Shown: piece by piece, positions 22,485-30,113 of the stretch
How positions within the stretch are numbered: the stretch's first letter is position 1
How the letters are laid out: every line of letters begins with the position of its first letter
Assembly (NCBI GenBank): GCA_965223325.1
Contig: CBDCWI010000001.1
Location: forward strand, 832,001-896,000
DNA length: 64,000 nucleotides
Direction of reading: 5' to 3'
Origin: Candidatus Multivoradales bacterium
GTDB taxonomy: Bacteria > Acidobacteriota > Thermoanaerobaculia > Multivoradales > Multivoraceae
Translations under genes and position numbers: made by a program
The notes under the pieces: model-generated
The model's database searches: none
The model's input: only the letters and a program-made list of their open reading frames with translations
Told to the model about the DNA's origin: nothing

Positions 22485-22508
22485 GGTTGCCTCTTCCCTG
22501 GTCGTGGC

Positions 22509-23822
22509 TCACGCGTCGTGAGCAATCTCGGGTAGCAGCTCGACGCGAACCGGCATGAGGTTCCAGGTGAACCGGCCGAGACCGTCGAGGTGCAGGGTGA
22601 GCAGTTCTTTGTGCCACTCGCCGCCCGAGTACACGTAGCGGTTGATCTCGTCGTGATCGTCGCTGGCAACGTAGAGCTCATCGGTGCCGTCGCCGTCAAG
22701 GTCTGTCAGTAAGGCCGCATGCTCGAAGCCGCCGGAGTCGGCGTCGATCAACTCCTTCTGCCACTCCCCATCGACCGAGCGCAAGAGAAACACGCCGGCC
22801 TGCTTGGCTGCCGCCACCATTTCCTTCTTGCCGTCGCCGTCGATGTCACCGGCAGTCAGAAAGCGGGTCAGCGAATCGTCGATGGTGGCGACGATCTGCC
22901 CGGCTGCAGGATCGGTATCTGCGTCGTAGCGTCGGATCTCGACCTCCCCACCCGAGACGGCCTCGATCGCGACGTAGAGTTCATCGCGACCATCACCATC
23001 GACGTCATCGACGAGGATCTCTTTGGCGTGCCGGTCGCCCATCTCCACGACGACGGTGCGTTCGCCGCCAGCCGCCGGGACGTATCGCACAACCCAGCCC
23101 TCCTGGTGCGAACCGTCCAGCTTGTTGGGCTCACTGGGCGTGGCGTAGACCTCCATCGCCCCATCGCCATCGAGGTCTCCGATCTCGACCTCGTGCACGA
23201 TGATTGCGTCGTCGCTGCTGTCGAGCAGGTCGACCTCGAAGCTGCCGTCGTCATGCGGACGCAACACGGCGACCTCGCCGCGGTCGTGGGTCGCGATGGC
23301 GATCGCCAGCGTGCCGTCGCCGTAGATGTCACCGACTTCGCCGTCTCGCATGCGAGAGAACTTGCCTCCGAAATCTTTCTGCCAGAGCGTTTCCTTCTCG
23401 CCGTTCGGACGCCACAGCTTGACCACGGCCGCGGTCCCACCGAGGGTCAAGATCCCGTCGCCGTACTCCATCGCCTTGTGGAAGACGTTGCTGTCGGAAT
23501 CTTCGAGGTAGCCGTAGTCCCAGAGCCCATCTTTCCGGGTCACCACGCCGAGCCTGGCGGGCAGGAGCTTCGGGCTGCCGTCGTCGTTCTTGTCGATCGC
23601 CGCCAGAGCGACCAACAAACCGCGGGAAAGGTCATCGGGCACGGTGGGCGATACCGCGGCGTCGGTGGAGCCGGCATCGCTCTCTTCGTTGGCAGTTTCT
23701 CCTCCGCTGCAGCTGGCCAGCAAGCCAACGAGGAGAATAGCCGTCAGGAGGAGTCGAAGAAGCGCTCGACGCTCGGGCACTGGACGATAGGAGAAGGGGT
23801 CAACGGGTTGGCTCGGGTTCAT
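22509..23822 (-). CDS. FG-GAP/VCBS repeat lipoprotein
   Basis: Lipobox LASC and five DxDGDG-type Ca-binding loops (GDIYGDG, GDLDGDG, DVDGDG, GDIDGDG, DLDGDG). Confidence 0.85.
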   Translation of the reverse strand: MNPSQPVDPFSYRPVPERRALLRLLLTAILLVGLLASCSGGETANEESDAGSTDAAVSPTVPDDLSRGLLVALAAIDKNDDGSPKLLPARLGVVTRKDGLWDYGYLEDSDSNVFHKAMEYGDGILTLGGTAAVVKLWRPNGEKETLWQKDFGGKFSRMRDGEVGDIYGDGTLAIAIATHDRGEVAVLRPHDDGSFEVDLLDSSDDAIIVHEVEIGDLDGDGAMEVYATPSEPNKLDGSHQEGWVVRYVPAAGGERTVVVEMGDRHAKEILVDDVDGDGRDELYVAIEAVSGGEVEIRRYDADTDPAAGQIVATIDDSLTRFLTAGDIDGDGKKEMVAAAKQAGVFLLRSVDGEWQKELIDADSGGFEHAALLTDLDGDGTDELYVASDDHDEINRYVYSGGEWHKELLTLHLDGLGRFTWNLMPVRVELLPEIAHDA

Positions 23823-24097
23823 GAAATCGTTCTCTCTTGGTGTTCACCCTGAACCGCTCCCCTGCTGGCAACCTGCAGGTGTGGCCGTTCGAGGCGGGTG
23901 TCGCCGCGGCAGGACTCTCGAGGGCGCAGTGGTAAAACGGCGACGGGCAGCGGGCGCGCTCGGGGCGCCAACCGGGGTGGCTGTCTCCTGGGGAGTCGAG
24001 GAGGCCTCGACGGTACTGAAGCTGTGGCGATCCTAGCAGTCTCCTCGGCCGCCGGGGCCGGATCGGCTGACACTCCACCGTGCTACCCTGCCGCGCG

Positions 24098-24688
24098 ATG
24101 TCAGCCGCCGCTTTTGCCCAGCGCCTCCACCGCCTCGGCGCCGTCCAATTCGGAGAGTTCACCCTCAAAGACGGCTCGCTATCGCCGGTCTACTGCGACC
24201 TCCGGCTACTCATCTCAGACGCGATGACCCTGCGCGCCGCCGGCGACGAATTCGCCCGCCTGCTGGCCAGCCTGCAGTTCGATCGGCTGGCAGCGATTCC
24301 CTACGCTGGACTGCCGCTGGGCACGGCCGCGGCCCTGGCAGCCGAGGTGCCACTGATCTTTCCGCGCAAGGAGAAGAAGGAGTATGGCACCGGGAAGACG
24401 ATCGAGGGGCGCTTTGCCCCTGGGGAGCGCGCCGTGGTGCTCGACGACTTGATCTCGAGCGGCAAGAGCAAGCTCGAGGCCATCGCCCCGCTCGAAGCCG
24501 CCGGGCTCGAGGTGTCCGACATCGTCGTGCTCATCGACCGCCGACCTGCCGGACCCTGCGAGGTCGAGGACGCCGGTTACGCGGTGCACGCCGCGTTCAC
24601 CCTGCCCGAGATTGCTGCCGCGCTTGCCGACGGTGGACGGATTGAGGCGAGTGAACGGCGGGCGATCGAGAAGTTCCTCGGCGGTTGA
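24098..24688 (+). CDS. pyrE: Orotate phosphoribosyltransferase
   Basis: FGEFTLKDG..SPVYCDLR, IPYAGLP, RKEKKEYG and the PRPP loop VVLDDLISSG.SK. Confidence 0.95.
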   Translation: MSAAAFAQRLHRLGAVQFGEFTLKDGSLSPVYCDLRLLISDAMTLRAAGDEFARLLASLQFDRLAAIPYAGLPLGTAAALAAEVPLIFPRKEKKEYGTGKTIEGRFAPGERAVVLDDLISSGKSKLEAIAPLEAAGLEVSDIVVLIDRRPAGPCEVEDAGYAVHAAFTLPEIAAALADGGRIEASERRAIEKFLGG

Positions 24689-24716
24689 GCCCCGGCGGGT
24701 CGACCGAACCACTTCG

Positions 24717-24991
24717 AACCGCAGCACTCGCCAGAACAGGGACGGCTCGATCTCCGTCCTTGCCGCTTTCTTTGTTGCTTCTTGTGGTTGGTGGTTGTGG
24801 TTGGTTGTTGGTGGTTCGTGGTTGGTGGTTGGTTGTTGGTGGTTCGTGGTTGGTGGTTGGTTGTTGGTTGTTGGTTGTTGGTTGTTGGTTGTTGGAGATG
24901 TTGGGGCGGGATCGGCCGTGCGGGCGGGCGATGGGCGACGGTCCAGGGCACGGCGACGCTTTTTCGGACTGCGGTGGGTAGCGCCACCTGC
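24717..24991 (+). repeat. Dispersed structured repeat element, copy A (contains heptamer expansion)
   Basis: 24735-24768 is the exact reverse complement (34/34) of 26655-26688. 24899-24991 aligns to the reverse complement of ~26542-26633 with scattered substitutions. Confidence 0.9.
24769..24898 (+). repeat. G/T-rich heptamer tandem array (TTGGTTG / TTGGTGG / TTCGTGG)n
   Basis: About 15 consecutive 7-mers, essentially A-free on the + strand, ending in five perfect TTGGTTG units. Confidence 0.95.
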
Positions 24992-25091
24992 GCTCGACGG
25001 CCGCGTATCGTTTGTCGCCTGCGATGGCAGTACTAGTTCGGCCGTCGAGGGCACCCTGGACCGTCGCCCATGCGCCCGCCCGCACTCTCGC

Positions 25092-25647
25092 GCTACAAAC
25101 ATCGTCAGCACGACAGGTGGGGACGCGGCATCTGGACGGACGGGGATCTCGCTCAGGGCGGGGGGTTGGGTGGTGGCGTGTCGGTTGGGAGAGAGCTGGG
25201 CTGTCTACCGCTGGCGAGGTCACTGAGAGAGCTACGACCATCGTCAGCACAGGAGGGGGGGCGCCGGCATCTGGACGGACGGGGATCTCGCTCAGGGCGG
25301 GGGGTTGGGTGGTGGCGTGTCGGTTGGGAGAGAGCTGGGCTGTCTACCGCTGGCGAGGTCACTGAGAGAGCTACGACCATCGTCAGCACAGGAGGGGGGG
25401 CACCGGCCTCTGGACGGACGGGGATCTCGCTCAGGGCGGGGGTTGGGTGGTGGCGTCTCGGTTGGGAGAGAGCTGGGCTGTTCGCCGCTGGCGAGGTCAC
25501 TGAGAGAGCTACGACCATCGTCAGCACAGGAGGGGGGCGCCGGCATCTGGACGGACGGGGATCTCGCTCAGGGCGGGGGTTGGGTGGTGGCGTCTCGGTT
25601 GGGAGAGAGCTGGGCTGTTCGCCGCTGGCGAGGTCACTGAGAGAGCT
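25092..25647 (+). repeat. Tandem array of 4 x ~139-bp G-rich units
   Basis: CTGGACGGACGGGGATCTCGCTCAGGGCG recurs at 25132, 25271, 25410 and 25547 (periods 139, 139, 137). Units are near-identical along their whole length. Confidence 0.97.
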
Positions 25648-25779
25648 CGATTGAGCCGGTTGGACCGGTTGCCCGGGTCGACCTACGCGGGACGGAACTA
25701 GGATCGGCCGCCGACTGATCGCCCGAGTCGAACCGCAGTGATCGCCGGACTGAAGCCGCTATTCGGCTGTATCGTGTCT

Positions 25780-26493
25780 ATGATGGCTACTGACCGGATA
25801 TCAGAGGCGCGTCAACGCGCCACGCTCCGTGCGCTGCTCGTGGCGACCCTGGAGCTCGGTCGGGTTCCGACCCGGGCCGAGCTTGGCGATCGGGTCGAAG
25901 GCACGCCGGATGCACTTCGGCGGGACCTCATCGCGCTAGCGGAAGCACACGAGGTGGTGCTGGAAGACACCCTCGAGGTGCGCATGTTGATGCCGTTCTC
26001 GGCGCGCCAGACGCAGCATGTCGTCCGCGCCTCAGGACAGAGGTGGTTCGCCAACTGCGCCTGGGATGCGTTGGGCATTCCCCAGGCACTTGCAGGGATG
26101 GGGACGGCGAAAGAGCGAACCAGTGAACCGGCGTGGCCCCTCGGCGCGGCCATCGAGACCAGCTGTCCAATCACCGGCGAGATCTTCGGAGTCGAGCGAG
26201 GAGATCCCTGGTGCGCACACTTCGCGGTTCCCGCCAGCCGCTGGTGGGAGGACATCGGCTTCACCTGAGCGACCATCCTGTTCTTCCGGTCGGAAGAAGA
26301 CGTTTCGAGATGGTGCAAGGAGCGGCGATCAGACCCCGGTGCCATTCTCGATCTAGAGACGCTCAACGACCTGGCAAGCATCTGGTGGGGAGGCCGTTTG
26401 CGTCCCGACTGGCGTCGTAGGACACTAGTCGAGGCGCAGGCAGTCTTCGAGAGTCTCGGGCTGACCTGCTCCTTCTGGGACCTCAGCGCATGA
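25780..26493 (+). CDS. merB: MerB-like organomercurial lyase, predicted selenoprotein (TGA 26266-26268 = Sec163), 237 aa
   Basis: N-terminal HTH-like region, PFS..T.H.V, NCAWDAL (catalytic C-x-x-D) and SCPITG. WWEDIGFT-TGA continues in frame as ATILFFRSEEDVSRWC...RLRPDWRRRTLVEAQAVFESLGLTCSFWDLSA to TGA 26491-26493. A SECIS-like hairpin follows the internal TGA. Confidence 0.85.
26266..26302 (+). promoter_or_regulatory. Bacterial SECIS-like stem-loop
   Basis: TGA + 12 nt + TTCTTCC-GGTC-GGAAGAA (perfect 7-bp stem 26281-26287/26292-26298, loop GGUC). The first loop G is 20 nt after UGA. Confidence 0.8.
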
Positions 26494-26541
26494 CAACGAG
26501 CAAGGACACCGGACCGTCGAGCCTAGCCTCTATCGAGGCCA

Positions 26542-26702
26542 GCGGGCGGCGCTGCCCGCGGTAGTCCGAACAAGCGTCGCCGTGCCCTGGAGCGCCGCCC
26601 ATCGCCCTCCACACGGCCGACCCTGCCCCAACACTTCCGACAACCTGAACCGAGAAGCGGCAAGGACGGAGATCGAGCCGTCCCTGTTGTGGTACTGCGG
26701 TT
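26542..26702 (-). repeat. Dispersed structured repeat element, copy B (inverted relative to copy A, no heptamer array)
   Basis: Reverse complement matches 24717-24768 and 24899-24991. Only 21 nt separate the two blocks, versus 130 nt in copy A. Confidence 0.9.
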
Positions 26703-26926
26703 GGGTCGCGAGAACTCTGAGGTGCCGGAGCTTTGCGCGCCGACTTTCGGCTGGCAAGAGAATGTGAGATTCTTCCCGTTCGCCAACCACCGACAACTCG
26801 ATCTCGCATCCAACCGGCCGCCCGCTGCCACGCGCTACCAGCGTGGAGCGCCGTTCGCCGCCCAGATGGCCTGTCGCTGAAACGACAGAGGGCCCACTGC
26901 GTACACAAGAGCGACACCCCTTCACC

Positions 26927-28150
26927 ATGGCCATGACCCAGCACACCGACTCCGAATCCCCGCGACCCAAGCTCGACCTGTCGGCGCTCTCGATGGACGA
27001 GACCGAGCGCGAACCGCCACGCCGGCGCCTGGGGCTCCTGGCCGCCATCCTCTTGCCGTTGGTTGCGATTGCCGTCCTGGTGATCCCGCGGCTCGACCTG
27101 CCGTTCCTGCTTCCCGAGGTCGAGACCACGACCGTCCAGAGCATCACCCCCACCCAAAGCCAGACAGTGCTCACCGCGACCGGCTACACCTATGCCCGCA
27201 CCCGCGCCGCCGTGGGTTCGAAGATCATTGGGCGGGTCGTTGACCTGCGGGTCGACGAAGGCGACCGCGTCAGACGCGGCGATGTGATCACGGTGCTCGA
27301 CAGCGACGACCTGCGCGCGGCGCTGCGCCAGGCGGAGGCCCGGCTCGCCGAGGCAGAGGCGCGTCTCGTTGACGCCGAGCGTGAGTTCGGCCGCCAAGAG
27401 CGTCTGGTCGACGCCGGCATCAACGCCCAAGCGGCCTACGACAGCGCCGAGACCCAGCTCGGCATCGCCCGCGCCACCGTCGACACCGCCCAGGCCGCCG
27501 TCGATTCGGTCAACGCCAACCTCGCCTACACCGTCATCCACTCACCCATCGACGGCGTCGTGATCGAACGCAACGTCGAGGTCGGCGAAATGGTGGCGCC
27601 CGGCGGCTTCACCAGCCAACAGTCGACCGGTGCCATCGTTCGCCTCGCCGACCCCCAGTCGCTCGAAGTCGAAGCCGACGTCAACGAGTCCTATGTGTCG
27701 CGGCTGGTTTCCGGCATGCCGGCGCGCATCAAGGTCGACGCGGTCCCTGACCACACCTACAACGGCGAACTGCGGCAGATCGTGCCGACGGCCGATCGCC
27801 AGCGCGCCGTGGTCGAGGTCAAGGTCACGATCGACGACCGCGACGAGCGCCTGGTGCCTGACATGAGCTGTTCGGTGACGTTTCTCGAGGAAGGCACCGA
27901 TCGCGCGGCGCTCGACGCCGAGCCACGCTTGATGGTCGCCGGTTCAGCGCTCCTCTATGAAGGGGGCGAGGTCTTTGTCTATCGGGTCACCGAAGGGCGG
28001 CTGCGCAAGGTGCGCGTCGACGTCTCGGAGGGTGACGGAGCTGCAGCCGACATGGTTCAAGTCACCGGCGGAGTCGCAGCCGGTGACGTGCTCGTGCGAC
28101 GCCCAACCGCCGAGCTGAGCGACGGTCTCGACGTGCGAGTCGCCGGGTAG
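26927..28150 (+). CDS. Efflux membrane-fusion (periplasmic adaptor) protein, MacA-like
   Basis: N-terminal TM, lipoyl-like halves [20 protein letters not shown] and [14 protein letters not shown], and a coiled-coil hairpin. Confidence 0.92.
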
Positions 28151-28227
28151 CACGCCCCGCAGAGCATCGCCGGCGGTATGGTCAAGAGAACCCCACGAAG
28201 AGTGAACGTCTTTCCAGGAGAGACCGT

Positions 28228-28965
28228 ATGTCTGAAGCCAATAGCCCGCTCGTCCACGTCGAGAACGTCGTCAAGACCTACGAGCGCGATTCATTCGAGA
28301 TCAAGGTACTCGATGGTCTCTCGCTGGTCGCCAATGAAGGTGAGTTCCTGGCGCTCATGGGGCCCTCGGGCTCCGGCAAGAGCACGCTGCTCAACCTGTT
28401 GGCCGGCATCGACCGTCCTACCTCCGGCAAGATCCGCGTTGCAGGCCAGGACGTCACCAGCCTCAGCGAGTCTCAGATGGCACGCTGGCGACAGCGCCAC
28501 ATCGGCTTCATCTTCCAGTTCTACAACCTGGTACCAGTGCTCAACGCGTTCGAGAACGTCGAGCTCCCGCTCACCCTGACCCGGCTGGGAAAGGCCGAGC
28601 GCAGGAAGAAGGTCGAGGTGGCGCTCGAGGTCGTTGGCCTCGCGGACCGCATGACGCACTATCCGCGCCAGCTTTCGGGCGGCCAGGAACAGCGCGTCGC
28701 CATCGCCCGCGCCATCGTCACCGACCCGACCCTCTTGCTCGCCGACGAACCCACCGGCGACCTCGACGCCGAGTCCGCAACCGAGATCCTCGACCTCCTC
28801 GGAGCCTTGAACAGCGACTACGGCAAGACCATTCTGATGGTCACCCACGACCCGCGCGCCGCCCAGCGCGCCTCGCGCCAGATCCGCCTCGACAAGGGGC
28901 GCCTGATCGATGGCCAGGACCACGTCGACGCTGCGGTCACGGCCGCCGAGGAGGTCTCTGCATGA
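28228..28965 (+). CDS. ABC transporter ATP-binding protein (MacB/LolD type)
   Basis: [29 protein letters not shown] and VTHD. Confidence 0.96.
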
Positions 28966-30113
28966 TCCGCCTGGTCTGGCGCAACCTGTTGCGCAACAAG
29001 CGCCGCACCATCCTCACCGTCTTGAGTGTGGCGATGGCGATCTTCCTGTTGGTTCTGCTCGGCTCCGTCCTCCAGGCGATGACCGACGTCGGCAACCCCA
29101 GTGAGGCCAGCATGCTCGTGGTTCGCAACGCGATCTCGCTCACCTTTCAGATTCCCGAGGCCTACGGCCCGCGCATCGCGGCCCTCCCCCACGTGGTGGC
29201 GGTGACACCGCTCGACTGGTTCCAGGGGGTCTACAAAGACAACCGGCCCGAGAACTTCTTCCCGCGCTTCGCTACCGATCCAGAGACTTTGCGTGACGTG
29301 TTCACCGACGTCACTGTCGATGAGGCTCAGTGGGACGACTTCCGGCGTGAACGCACCGCCTTCGCCAGCGGCCGTCGCCTGGCCGAGAAGCAGGGCTGGG
29401 AGATCGGCGATGTGATCGCCATCAAAGGCGACATCTACCCGGTCGACCTCGAGTTGACCTTGCGCGCCATCTTCACGTACCCCGGCAACGAGGGCCAGGA
29501 GAACCTGATCTACCTGCACCGTAAGTACGTTCAGGAGGCGATTGGCAACCCGGGCACGGTCAACAACTTCTGGCTCCAGATCGACGATCCGGAGAACGCA
29601 ACGGCGGTGATTCGCGAAATCGAAGGCATGTTCGAGAACTCGCAGGCCCAGGTGCGCGCCGAAACCGCTCAGGCGTTCGCACTGTCGTTCGTCAACATGC
29701 TCGGCAACGTGCGTTTTCTGTTCGGCTCGATCGGCCTGGCCATCGTGGTCTCGATTCTTCTCATCACCGCCAACACCATGGCAATGGCGGCGCGCGAAAG
29801 AACCCGTGAGGTCGCCGTGCTGCGCACCCTCGGTTTTCGCCGCGGGCAGGTCACCGCAATGGTCATTCTCGAGGCGTTGGTCGTCGGAGTGGTTGGCTCC
29901 GCCCTCGGGCTCGCCGGCGCGACGATGGTCACCCGTGCCATCGATCCGATCCTGCAGGAGAACGGCCTGTCGTTTTCGAACCTCGCCATCGACCCACAGA
30001 GAGTGGCGATCGGCCTCGCCATCGGCCTCTTGATCGGCCTCATTGCCGGCGCCTTCCCAGCCTGGACCGCATCGCGCATGAAGATCGTCGACGGCTTGAG
30101 GAGAATCGCGTGA
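28962..30113 (+). CDS. ABC transporter permease (MacB-PCD/FtsX)
   Basis: [10 protein letters not shown] and [14 protein letters not shown], with 1+3 TM topology. ATGA overlap with the ATPase gene. Confidence 0.92.

Follow-up and report, generated by a model that had tools for sequence, protein, structure and literature searches.

In the 64,000-nucleotide stretch of Candidatus Multivoradales bacterium DNA analysed here (the window, taken from contig CBDCWI010000001.1), we found that positions 25780-26493 are best explained as a 237-residue selenoprotein gene of the MerB (alkylmercury lyase, PF03243) superfamily with the function of a MerB-type lyase, a reading to which we assign an overall probability of about 0.88. 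The gene is very probably a true selenocysteine (Sec)-decoded gene, with the insertion of Sec itself predicted from comparative sequence evidence. That its physiological substrate would be an organomercurial is suggested by homology, and we hold this part of the reading at just under an even chance.

The coding sequence probably starts at ATG 25780 (an alternative GTG start is present at 25738), and the database gene call P0002 (162 aa) opens at the same position. From this start, 162 codons lead up to ...PASRWWEDIGFT (...WWEDIGFT) and an in-frame TGA at 26266-26268, after which the frame continues for 74 sense codons (ATILFFRSEEDV...FWDLSA; ATILFFRSEEDVSRW...GLTCSFWDLSA) to a second TGA at 26491-26493, which is the true stop of the gene. 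An initial annotation, made from the letters and a list of open reading frames (ORFs), had noted that the ORF ends at WWEDIGFT with 74 further sense codons behind it, and had proposed a 237-aa readthrough product that standard annotation would miss. The frame agrees with this on all counts, since 162 codons, the TGA and 74 codons give the 237 residues, and both the gene call and 105 of 120 listed database homologues end at the TGA. Contigs from public runs were identical to the window sequence through the TGA (0 differences); of these runs, X1 and X2 may have supplied the assembly itself, X6 belongs to another study and spans 26125-26275, and X5 does not cover the TGA. The runs listed for this stretch included no RNA run. 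Further contigs of runs X1 and X2 matched the window over the ∼60-nt stretch of UGA and downstream hairpin only (26241-26302), with 4-6 differences and divergent sequence on both sides. These partial matches are consistent with other organisms in the samples carrying the same family and the same nucleotide-level core.

Scanning the contigs of species-representative genomes yielded at least 593 relatives of the gene, and all locus statistics given below refer to the best 80 of these. The hosts of the 80 loci, which are represented by metagenome-assembled genomes, fall into six phyla: Actinomycetota (Gaiellaceae and others), Gemmatimonadota, Chloroflexota, Acidobacteriota (Vicinamibacteria), Calditrichota and Planctomycetota. 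The codon that follows a conserved F/Y-T dipeptide was TGA in 79 of the loci and TAG in the remaining one, and beyond this column the frame stayed open for 70-91 codons in 80 of 80, opening with xTMxLFRSEEH. The initial annotation had expected Cys or TGA in homologues at this column and conservation of the segment downstream of it. Both were observed, with TGA in the 79 loci, Cys in 9 of the 120 listed database homologues, and the conserved open frame in every locus. Among the same 120 listed homologues the 105 shortened ones end exactly at the column and 2 lack the motif; some of the proteins that end there are named 'organomercurial lyase' at a length of 148-151 aa. Because gene callers cut the family at the UGA, the predicted catalytic Sec and the conserved C-terminal third are missing from databases.

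The same pattern was seen closer to the window's genome. A match was present in 9 of 41 close relatives, and all 8 strong matches contained at least one TGA (counted inside the match). For a sample of the phylum comprising 401 genomes, matches were found in 37; the 29 full-length rows (at least 190 bits) consisted of 27 with one TGA inside the match and 2 with none, and 12 weaker rows were left unclassified. SelA was present in 26 of 26 genomes with the TGA form versus 301 of 401 overall. The unpublished genomes G189 and G063 (G088 for SelA) are counted in these phylum tallies; leaving out G189 and G063 gives 25 of 27 rows and 24 of 24 genomes. We also built an alignment of 88 family members (A3), used as a profile and as input for AlphaFold2, and a quick tree of it (approximate likelihood ratio support, SH-aLRT; midpoint root) from which no direction of Sec/Cys change was drawn. 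In this tree the 8 included Cys forms occurred in at least 3 places, namely as a clade of five, as P0003 beside a Calditrichota Sec form, and as P0009 inside an Actinomycetota Sec clade.

Immediately downstream of the in-frame TGA lies a putative selenocysteine insertion sequence (SECIS) element. A spacer of 12 nt (26269-26280) separates the TGA from the 5' arm TTCTTCC, which forms 7 perfect pairs with the 3' arm GGAAGAA across the loop GGTC, just as the initial annotation had described the hairpin. The SECIS loops of E. coli fdhF and of Moorella likewise contain GGUC. To compare this region between loci we aligned the 60 nt from the stop codon onwards for the window and the 80 loci (alignment A2), with the proviso that these 81 sequences are related and not independent. 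The core TTCCGGTCGGA was essentially invariant in DNA across A2 despite its degenerate codons. A skewed codon choice was seen in the loop, where Arg is encoded by CGG in 79 of the 80 loci (CGA in one) and Ser by TCG in all 80; in the remainder of these genes, 36% of Arg codons are CGG and 41% of Ser codons are TCG. Standard pairs filled 95.8% of the cells of the 7-bp helix, versus 49.7-66.7% when the 3' partner was slid by 1-3 columns, and none of 500 shuffles equalled the observed pairing or covariation score. Pair 19-30 (43 UA, 21 UG, 17 CG) was broken in no sequence, and C at column 19 was found exclusively together with G at column 30 (17/17); the pair couples a change between Phe and Leu codons to the choice among synonymous Glu codons. 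RNAalifold recovered the inner 5 pairs from A2.

The Cys forms served as a control, although a small one (n=2, located by tblastn). The two phylum homologues with no stop, G280 and G061, have TGC at the column, and the GGUC loop and stem were absent from both of them: their loops read GGGA and CGAA, pairing is possible at only 4 of 7 positions, and the corresponding peptides are FRDES and FTNES. The R-S-E-E peptide is relaxed in the database Cys forms too, and some of the FRSEE conservation seen in Sec forms therefore seems to come from constraints on the RNA.

All components for Sec decoding that the initial annotation had named as a check (selA, selB, selC and selD) were found in the genome: a tRNA-Sec (71.9 bits; called SeC with anticodon tca by ARAGORN), SelA (369 bits), the SelB winged-helix domain (64 bits, within a 648-aa frame) and SelD (222.8 bits). 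The SelD match lies within a 769-aa open frame (G000:C1:1388290-1390062; L011, L115) whose N-terminal part is matched by a model for pyridine-nucleotide-disulfide oxidoreductases, an apparent fusion of SelD with an oxidoreductase-like domain. Judged from its gene content, the genome has this machinery in use, as it also encodes a Sec-type FdhA and an AhpC/TSA protein that is a third selenoprotein candidate. In fdhA, 11 nt separate the UGA from a 7-bp stem (GGUCGCC/GGUGACC) that is capped by the loop GGUCU. The hairpin of the MerB-like gene resembles this element in its distance from the UGA (11-12 nt in the two genes), its stem length and an apical loop that opens with GGUC; unlike it, the loop has 4 nt (GGUC) instead of 5, and no bulged U is evident. 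In the AhpC/TSA candidate the TGA is part of a UxxC redox motif (W-U-P-Y-C), and a 6-bp stem with a GGUCG loop comes after it. A genome-wide scan for hairpins with a GGUC loop and 5 bp or more, located 14-24 nt after a TGA that is flanked by open frames, gave 37 matches out of 1768 such hairpins, and the pattern alone is therefore unspecific. When 10 further scan matches were taken to Pfam, 1 of them (the AhpC/TSA gene) had a domain over the TGA, which brings the supported total to 3 together with fdhA and the MerB-like gene.

Several observations weigh against decoding of the UGA as Sec. The lone TAG locus (L077:4394-4453) differs in the next codon as well and has an intact hairpin; it may have been inactivated recently or contain a sequence error. 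R, G, A and W each occur once at the column among the 120 listed homologues, where the Trp, found in 1 of 120, is a single exception and not the rule. In the A3 tree the window copy has a long branch (1.18). Folded as a lone sequence, a 71-nt segment was no more stable than its shuffles (z = -0.05, 95 of 200 as stable), so that the single-sequence hairpin is not evidence on its own and the evidence comes from comparison. A scan of 25700-26600 against Rfam with E up to 10 returned no SECIS family and three chance-level microRNA or small RNA matches. Two stem pairs only vary on both sides in A2, and the stem lies within the conserved peptide FRSEE, which means that part of its conservation could be protein-level.

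We considered whether the in-frame TGA could instead be a nonsense mutation (TGC to TGA) that cut a Cys-type MerB-like gene and left the downstream frame as a decaying remnant. Such a pseudogene would fit the standard gene call that stops at the TGA, the divergence and long branch of the window copy, and the same-genus genome G001, in which the MerB-like gene was not found. It is effectively refuted by the recurrence of the TGA at this position in 79 of the 80 loci, spread over six phyla, with the downstream frame intact, and the A3 invariant residues, which are all present in the window protein on both sides of the TGA, the perfect SECIS and the presence of the Sec machinery also speak against it; we regard it as very improbable. 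Even less credit is due to the idea that the UGA is decoded by near-cognate readthrough or by genome-wide reassignment to Trp or Gly. The one homologue with Trp and the one with Gly at the column are in its favour, whereas the gene's own terminator is a TGA, the genome uses the ordinary table 11 and has a tRNA-Sec (tca), the hairpin is conserved at SECIS distance in TGA forms only, and SelA accompanies the TGA form in every one of the 26 genomes.

The protein read through the TGA has the MerB fold and the MerB catalytic columns. Pfam PF03243 matched it with 74.6 bits (cut-off 27; E 9e-21) over aa 73-202 and profile positions 1-124 of 126, spanning the TGA, and it was the sole MerB-family match in the 6.69-Mb genome. 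As a profile, A3 matched MerB2 (PDB 5C17) with an E of 2.3e-20 and the E. coli MerB entries with 2.7e-11 to 6.8e-10, and these alignments place Cys93 on MerB Cys96, Asp96 on Asp99, and the TGA column on Cys159 (Cys165 of MerB2). The initial annotation had assigned the catalytic Cys and Asp to NCAWD and the Cys159-equivalent site to TGA-ATILFF, an assignment with which the profile alignments concur. C93 and D96 are nearly invariant (at least 90%) across A3, and the second catalytic Cys column, with a TGA (Sec163) here and Cys in the 9 homologues mentioned above, is conserved as a chalcogen nucleophile and not literally as Cys. An AlphaFold2 model obtained with A3 had a mean pLDDT (predicted local distance difference test) of 93.0 and a predicted template modelling (TM) score of 0.90. 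The least confident part was residues 101-120 (mean pLDDT 82 and 66 for its two 10-residue blocks), the region of a ∼15-residue lineage-specific insertion (about aa 106-120, GMGTAKERTSEPAWP) that homologues do not have. The best 11 PDB matches in Foldseek were all MerB or MerB2 (E 2.6e-8 to 4.6e-5, TM ∼0.5-0.6), followed by weak matches of winged-helix repressors to the N-terminal domain only.

Compared with the MerB of E. coli plasmid R831b (PDB 3F0O/3F0P/1S6L; Foldseek E 2.6e-8), the window protein shares the fold, with an N-terminal helical domain plus core, and the three catalytic columns, but differs by a structure-based identity of ∼17-20%, by the predicted Sec in place of Cys159, and by the lack of an adjacent Cys160. 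Of the proteins with a solved structure, MerB2 of Bacillus megaterium gave the strongest sequence match, which covers the N-terminal domain too; MerB2 has Ser where the window protein has Asp, and Cys where the window protein would have Sec. Two cysteine patterns were seen outside the catalytic columns. Most A3 homologues have a C-P-D-C-G motif near window residues 129-132, of which the window copy keeps the first Cys only (S-C-P-I-T-G), and a Cys follows the conserved Trp178 (R-W-C) in the window copy and in Gemmatimonadota and Acidobacteriota forms, with R-W-L in its place in Gaiellaceae forms.

A MerB-like selenoprotein family is already on record, namely SaoL (Selenocysteine-Assisted Organometallic Lyase; NF040728). 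According to its preprint (Haft & Gwadz, bioRxiv 10.1101/2022.07.06.499078), SaoL has a C-U dipeptide with the Sec aligned to MerB Cys159 and marks a nine-gene SAO locus in hosts that are exclusively anaerobes; the preprint also argues that Sec at the metal site leaves organomercurial specificity uncertain. A metal-binding or hand-off role has been suggested for SaoL. SaoL is the sole MerB-like selenoprotein family in the review tables of PMC9312934 and PMC13188914, and no other published family was found in full-text literature, with supplementary selenoproteome tables being a place where the present clade may be listed. The initial annotation had mentioned that MerB-like selenoproteins were predicted elsewhere and that the family may not be new. 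Such a prediction exists in SaoL, to which the present gene very probably does not belong. The two share the superfamily and the Sec at the Cys159-equivalent position, which would favour membership. However, the window protein reached 24.9 bits against an NF040728 cut-off of 140, matching residues 40-100 only; it has F-T-U-A instead of C-U, with F/Y-T-U in all 79 TGA loci; and its gene stands alone, without SAO genes nearby and without a recurrent neighbourhood in the 80 loci. The hosts differ as well, as the present clade occurs in Gaiellaceae, Gemmatimonadota, Chloroflexota, Acidobacteriota, Calditrichota and Planctomycetota, and the main text of the preprint contains 0 occurrences of Gaiell-, Gemmatimonad-, Chloroflex-, Actinobacteria or Acidobacteri-. 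We therefore consider membership of the SaoL family very unlikely; by profile score, motif and neighbourhood, the predicted protein is outside it. Whether the relatives form a large undescribed second clade of Sec MerB-like lyases, with an F-T-U motif and a GGUC-loop SECIS in the F-R-S-E-E codons, spread over Actinomycetota (Gaiellaceae), Gemmatimonadota, Chloroflexota, Acidobacteriota and others, and systematically annotated as a ∼148 aa 'organomercurial lyase' or as 'hypothetical', appears to us an evenly balanced question.

The function of the protein is the less firm part of the reading, and we infer organometal-bond cleavage from homology. A number of results speak against an organomercurial role in particular. 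No model of NCBIfam release 20.0 reached its cut-off on the window protein, and the MerB equivalogs NF033555 and PRK13239 (EC 4.99.1.2) stayed far below theirs (24.4 vs 200 and 23.9 vs 193 bits). No mer family was found beside the gene (merR, merT and merP were not sought genome-wide), there was no Sao family among the 5 neighbouring proteins scanned, and no protein of the genome reached the MerA cut-off (best 404 vs 454 bits); this best MerA-like protein is a PRK06370-type FAD oxidoreductase (664.7 bits, cut-off 620). The gene differs from canonical merB in lying outside any mer operon. Across the 80 loci no neighbour was conserved, the commonest being present in 13. These neighbourhoods were built from greedy non-overlapping ORFs, since overlapping spurious ORFs of high-GC DNA swamp the clustering, and the recurrent neighbours, assigned by Pfam in 10 representatives, belong to unrelated lineage-specific housekeeping families such as PurH, a PALP-CBS enzyme and EamA.

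Without a mer context there is room for another substrate or role, and a genuine selenoprotein that acts on some other organometal or organometalloid bond, or that binds and hands off metal as suggested for SaoL, is a tentative yet serious alternative. The stand-alone position among housekeeping neighbours, the missing MerA and mer operon, the low equivalog scores, the doubt that the SaoL preprint attaches to organomercurial specificity with Sec at the metal site, and the extra conserved CPDC motif of most homologues would all agree with it. On the other side, the three MerB catalytic columns and the MerB fold are kept, and no different activity is known for this fold.

For a MerB-type selenoprotein lyase we propose the following mechanism. 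The UGA at 26266-26268 would not be read as a stop during translation; instead, the GGUC-loop hairpin 12 nt downstream would recruit SelB with Sec-tRNA(Sec), Sec would be inserted at position 163, and translation would run on for 74 codons to the real stop. Cys93, Asp96 and Sec163 could then form a MerB-type catalytic triad corresponding to Cys96, Asp99 and Cys159, in which the metal of an organometallic substrate (most likely an organomercurial) would be bound by the thiolate and the selenolate, with Asp96 donating a proton to the leaving carbon. As a nucleophile, a selenolate is stronger and more acidic, and its affinity for Hg is very high; it could speed Hg-C activation but hinder Hg(II) release. 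Sec at the Hg-binding site should alter both the reactivity of the Hg-C bond and the release of Hg(II).

If this reading is correct, a second, phylogenetically broad MerB-type selenoprotein would stand beside SaoL, with at least 593 relatives in species-representative genomes (of which the best 80 were examined) and with a compact SECIS, highly conserved and overlapping with a conserved peptide. Should these proteins demethylate methylmercury or cleave other carbon-metal bonds without mer operons, inventories of merB and of selenoproteins in soil and sediment would both be incomplete, and Sec at the metal site of the MerB fold would count as a recurring solution and not as peculiar to the anaerobic SAO system.

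The coordinates of the gene, its elements and the other features are collected in the table.

Table. Coordinates of the MerB-like gene, its elements, the flanking repeats (window positions) and the other Sec gene candidates of the genome (G000).
Feature	Position	Strand	Remarks
Predicted selenoprotein CDS of MerB-family protein	25780..26493	+	237 aa plus stop; Pfam MerB across internal TGA
Codons Cys93-Ala-Trp-Asp96 (CAWD of NCAWD)	26056..26067	+	MerB Cys96/Asp99 equivalents by alignment
∼15-residue lineage-specific insertion	26095..26139	+	alignment gap; homologues without it
In-frame TGA, predicted Sec163	26266..26268	+	MerB Cys159 equivalent by profile alignment; TGA at same column in 79/80 related loci
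Putative SECIS hairpin	26281..26298	+	7-bp stem 26281-26287 / 26292-26298, GGUC loop 26288-26291; within codons F-F-R-S-E-E
Left copy of dispersed intergenic repeat	24731..24991	.	inverted vs right copy; encloses GTGGTTG x16 microsatellite
GTGGTTG heptamer repeat	24784-24895		∼16 copies, 28-nt super-period; inside left repeat copy
Tandem array	25092-25647		four 139-bp units, 95% matches; directly upstream of gene
Right copy of dispersed intergenic repeat	26542..26692	.	with left copy brackets gene and 139-bp tandem array
Sec-type FdhA (L101)	G000:C2:858546-863561	-	equivalog 777.8 bits; one in-frame TGA, C2:861665
AhpC/TSA (aa 116-256) + DsbD_N protein (L125)	G000:C2:2678480-2679799		third selenoprotein candidate; TGA C2:2678942; Pfam domain spans TGA

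In the window, the MerB-like gene is preceded by a pyrE-like phosphoribosyltransferase gene and followed by genes for an RND/MacA-type adaptor, an ABC ATPase, two FtsX/MacB permeases and an AMP-binding enzyme. Comparison of 22500-29000 with contig C3 of the same-genus genome G001 placed the left flank (an FG-GAP gene and the phosphoribosyltransferase) and the right flank (adaptor and ABC ATPase) ∼250 kb apart, and with the gene itself not found there, it sits at a synteny break. The arms of the inverted repeat around the gene measure 69 nt at 86% (I1) and 38 nt at 97% (I2). A mobile cassette bounded by these repeats was considered and is unsupported: copies of the repeat are scattered over both contigs of its own genome (21 matches), and the repeat resembles an element of the REP (repetitive extragenic palindromic) or MITE (miniature inverted-repeat transposable element) type. 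The 139-bp tandem array yields long spurious ORFs in several frames.

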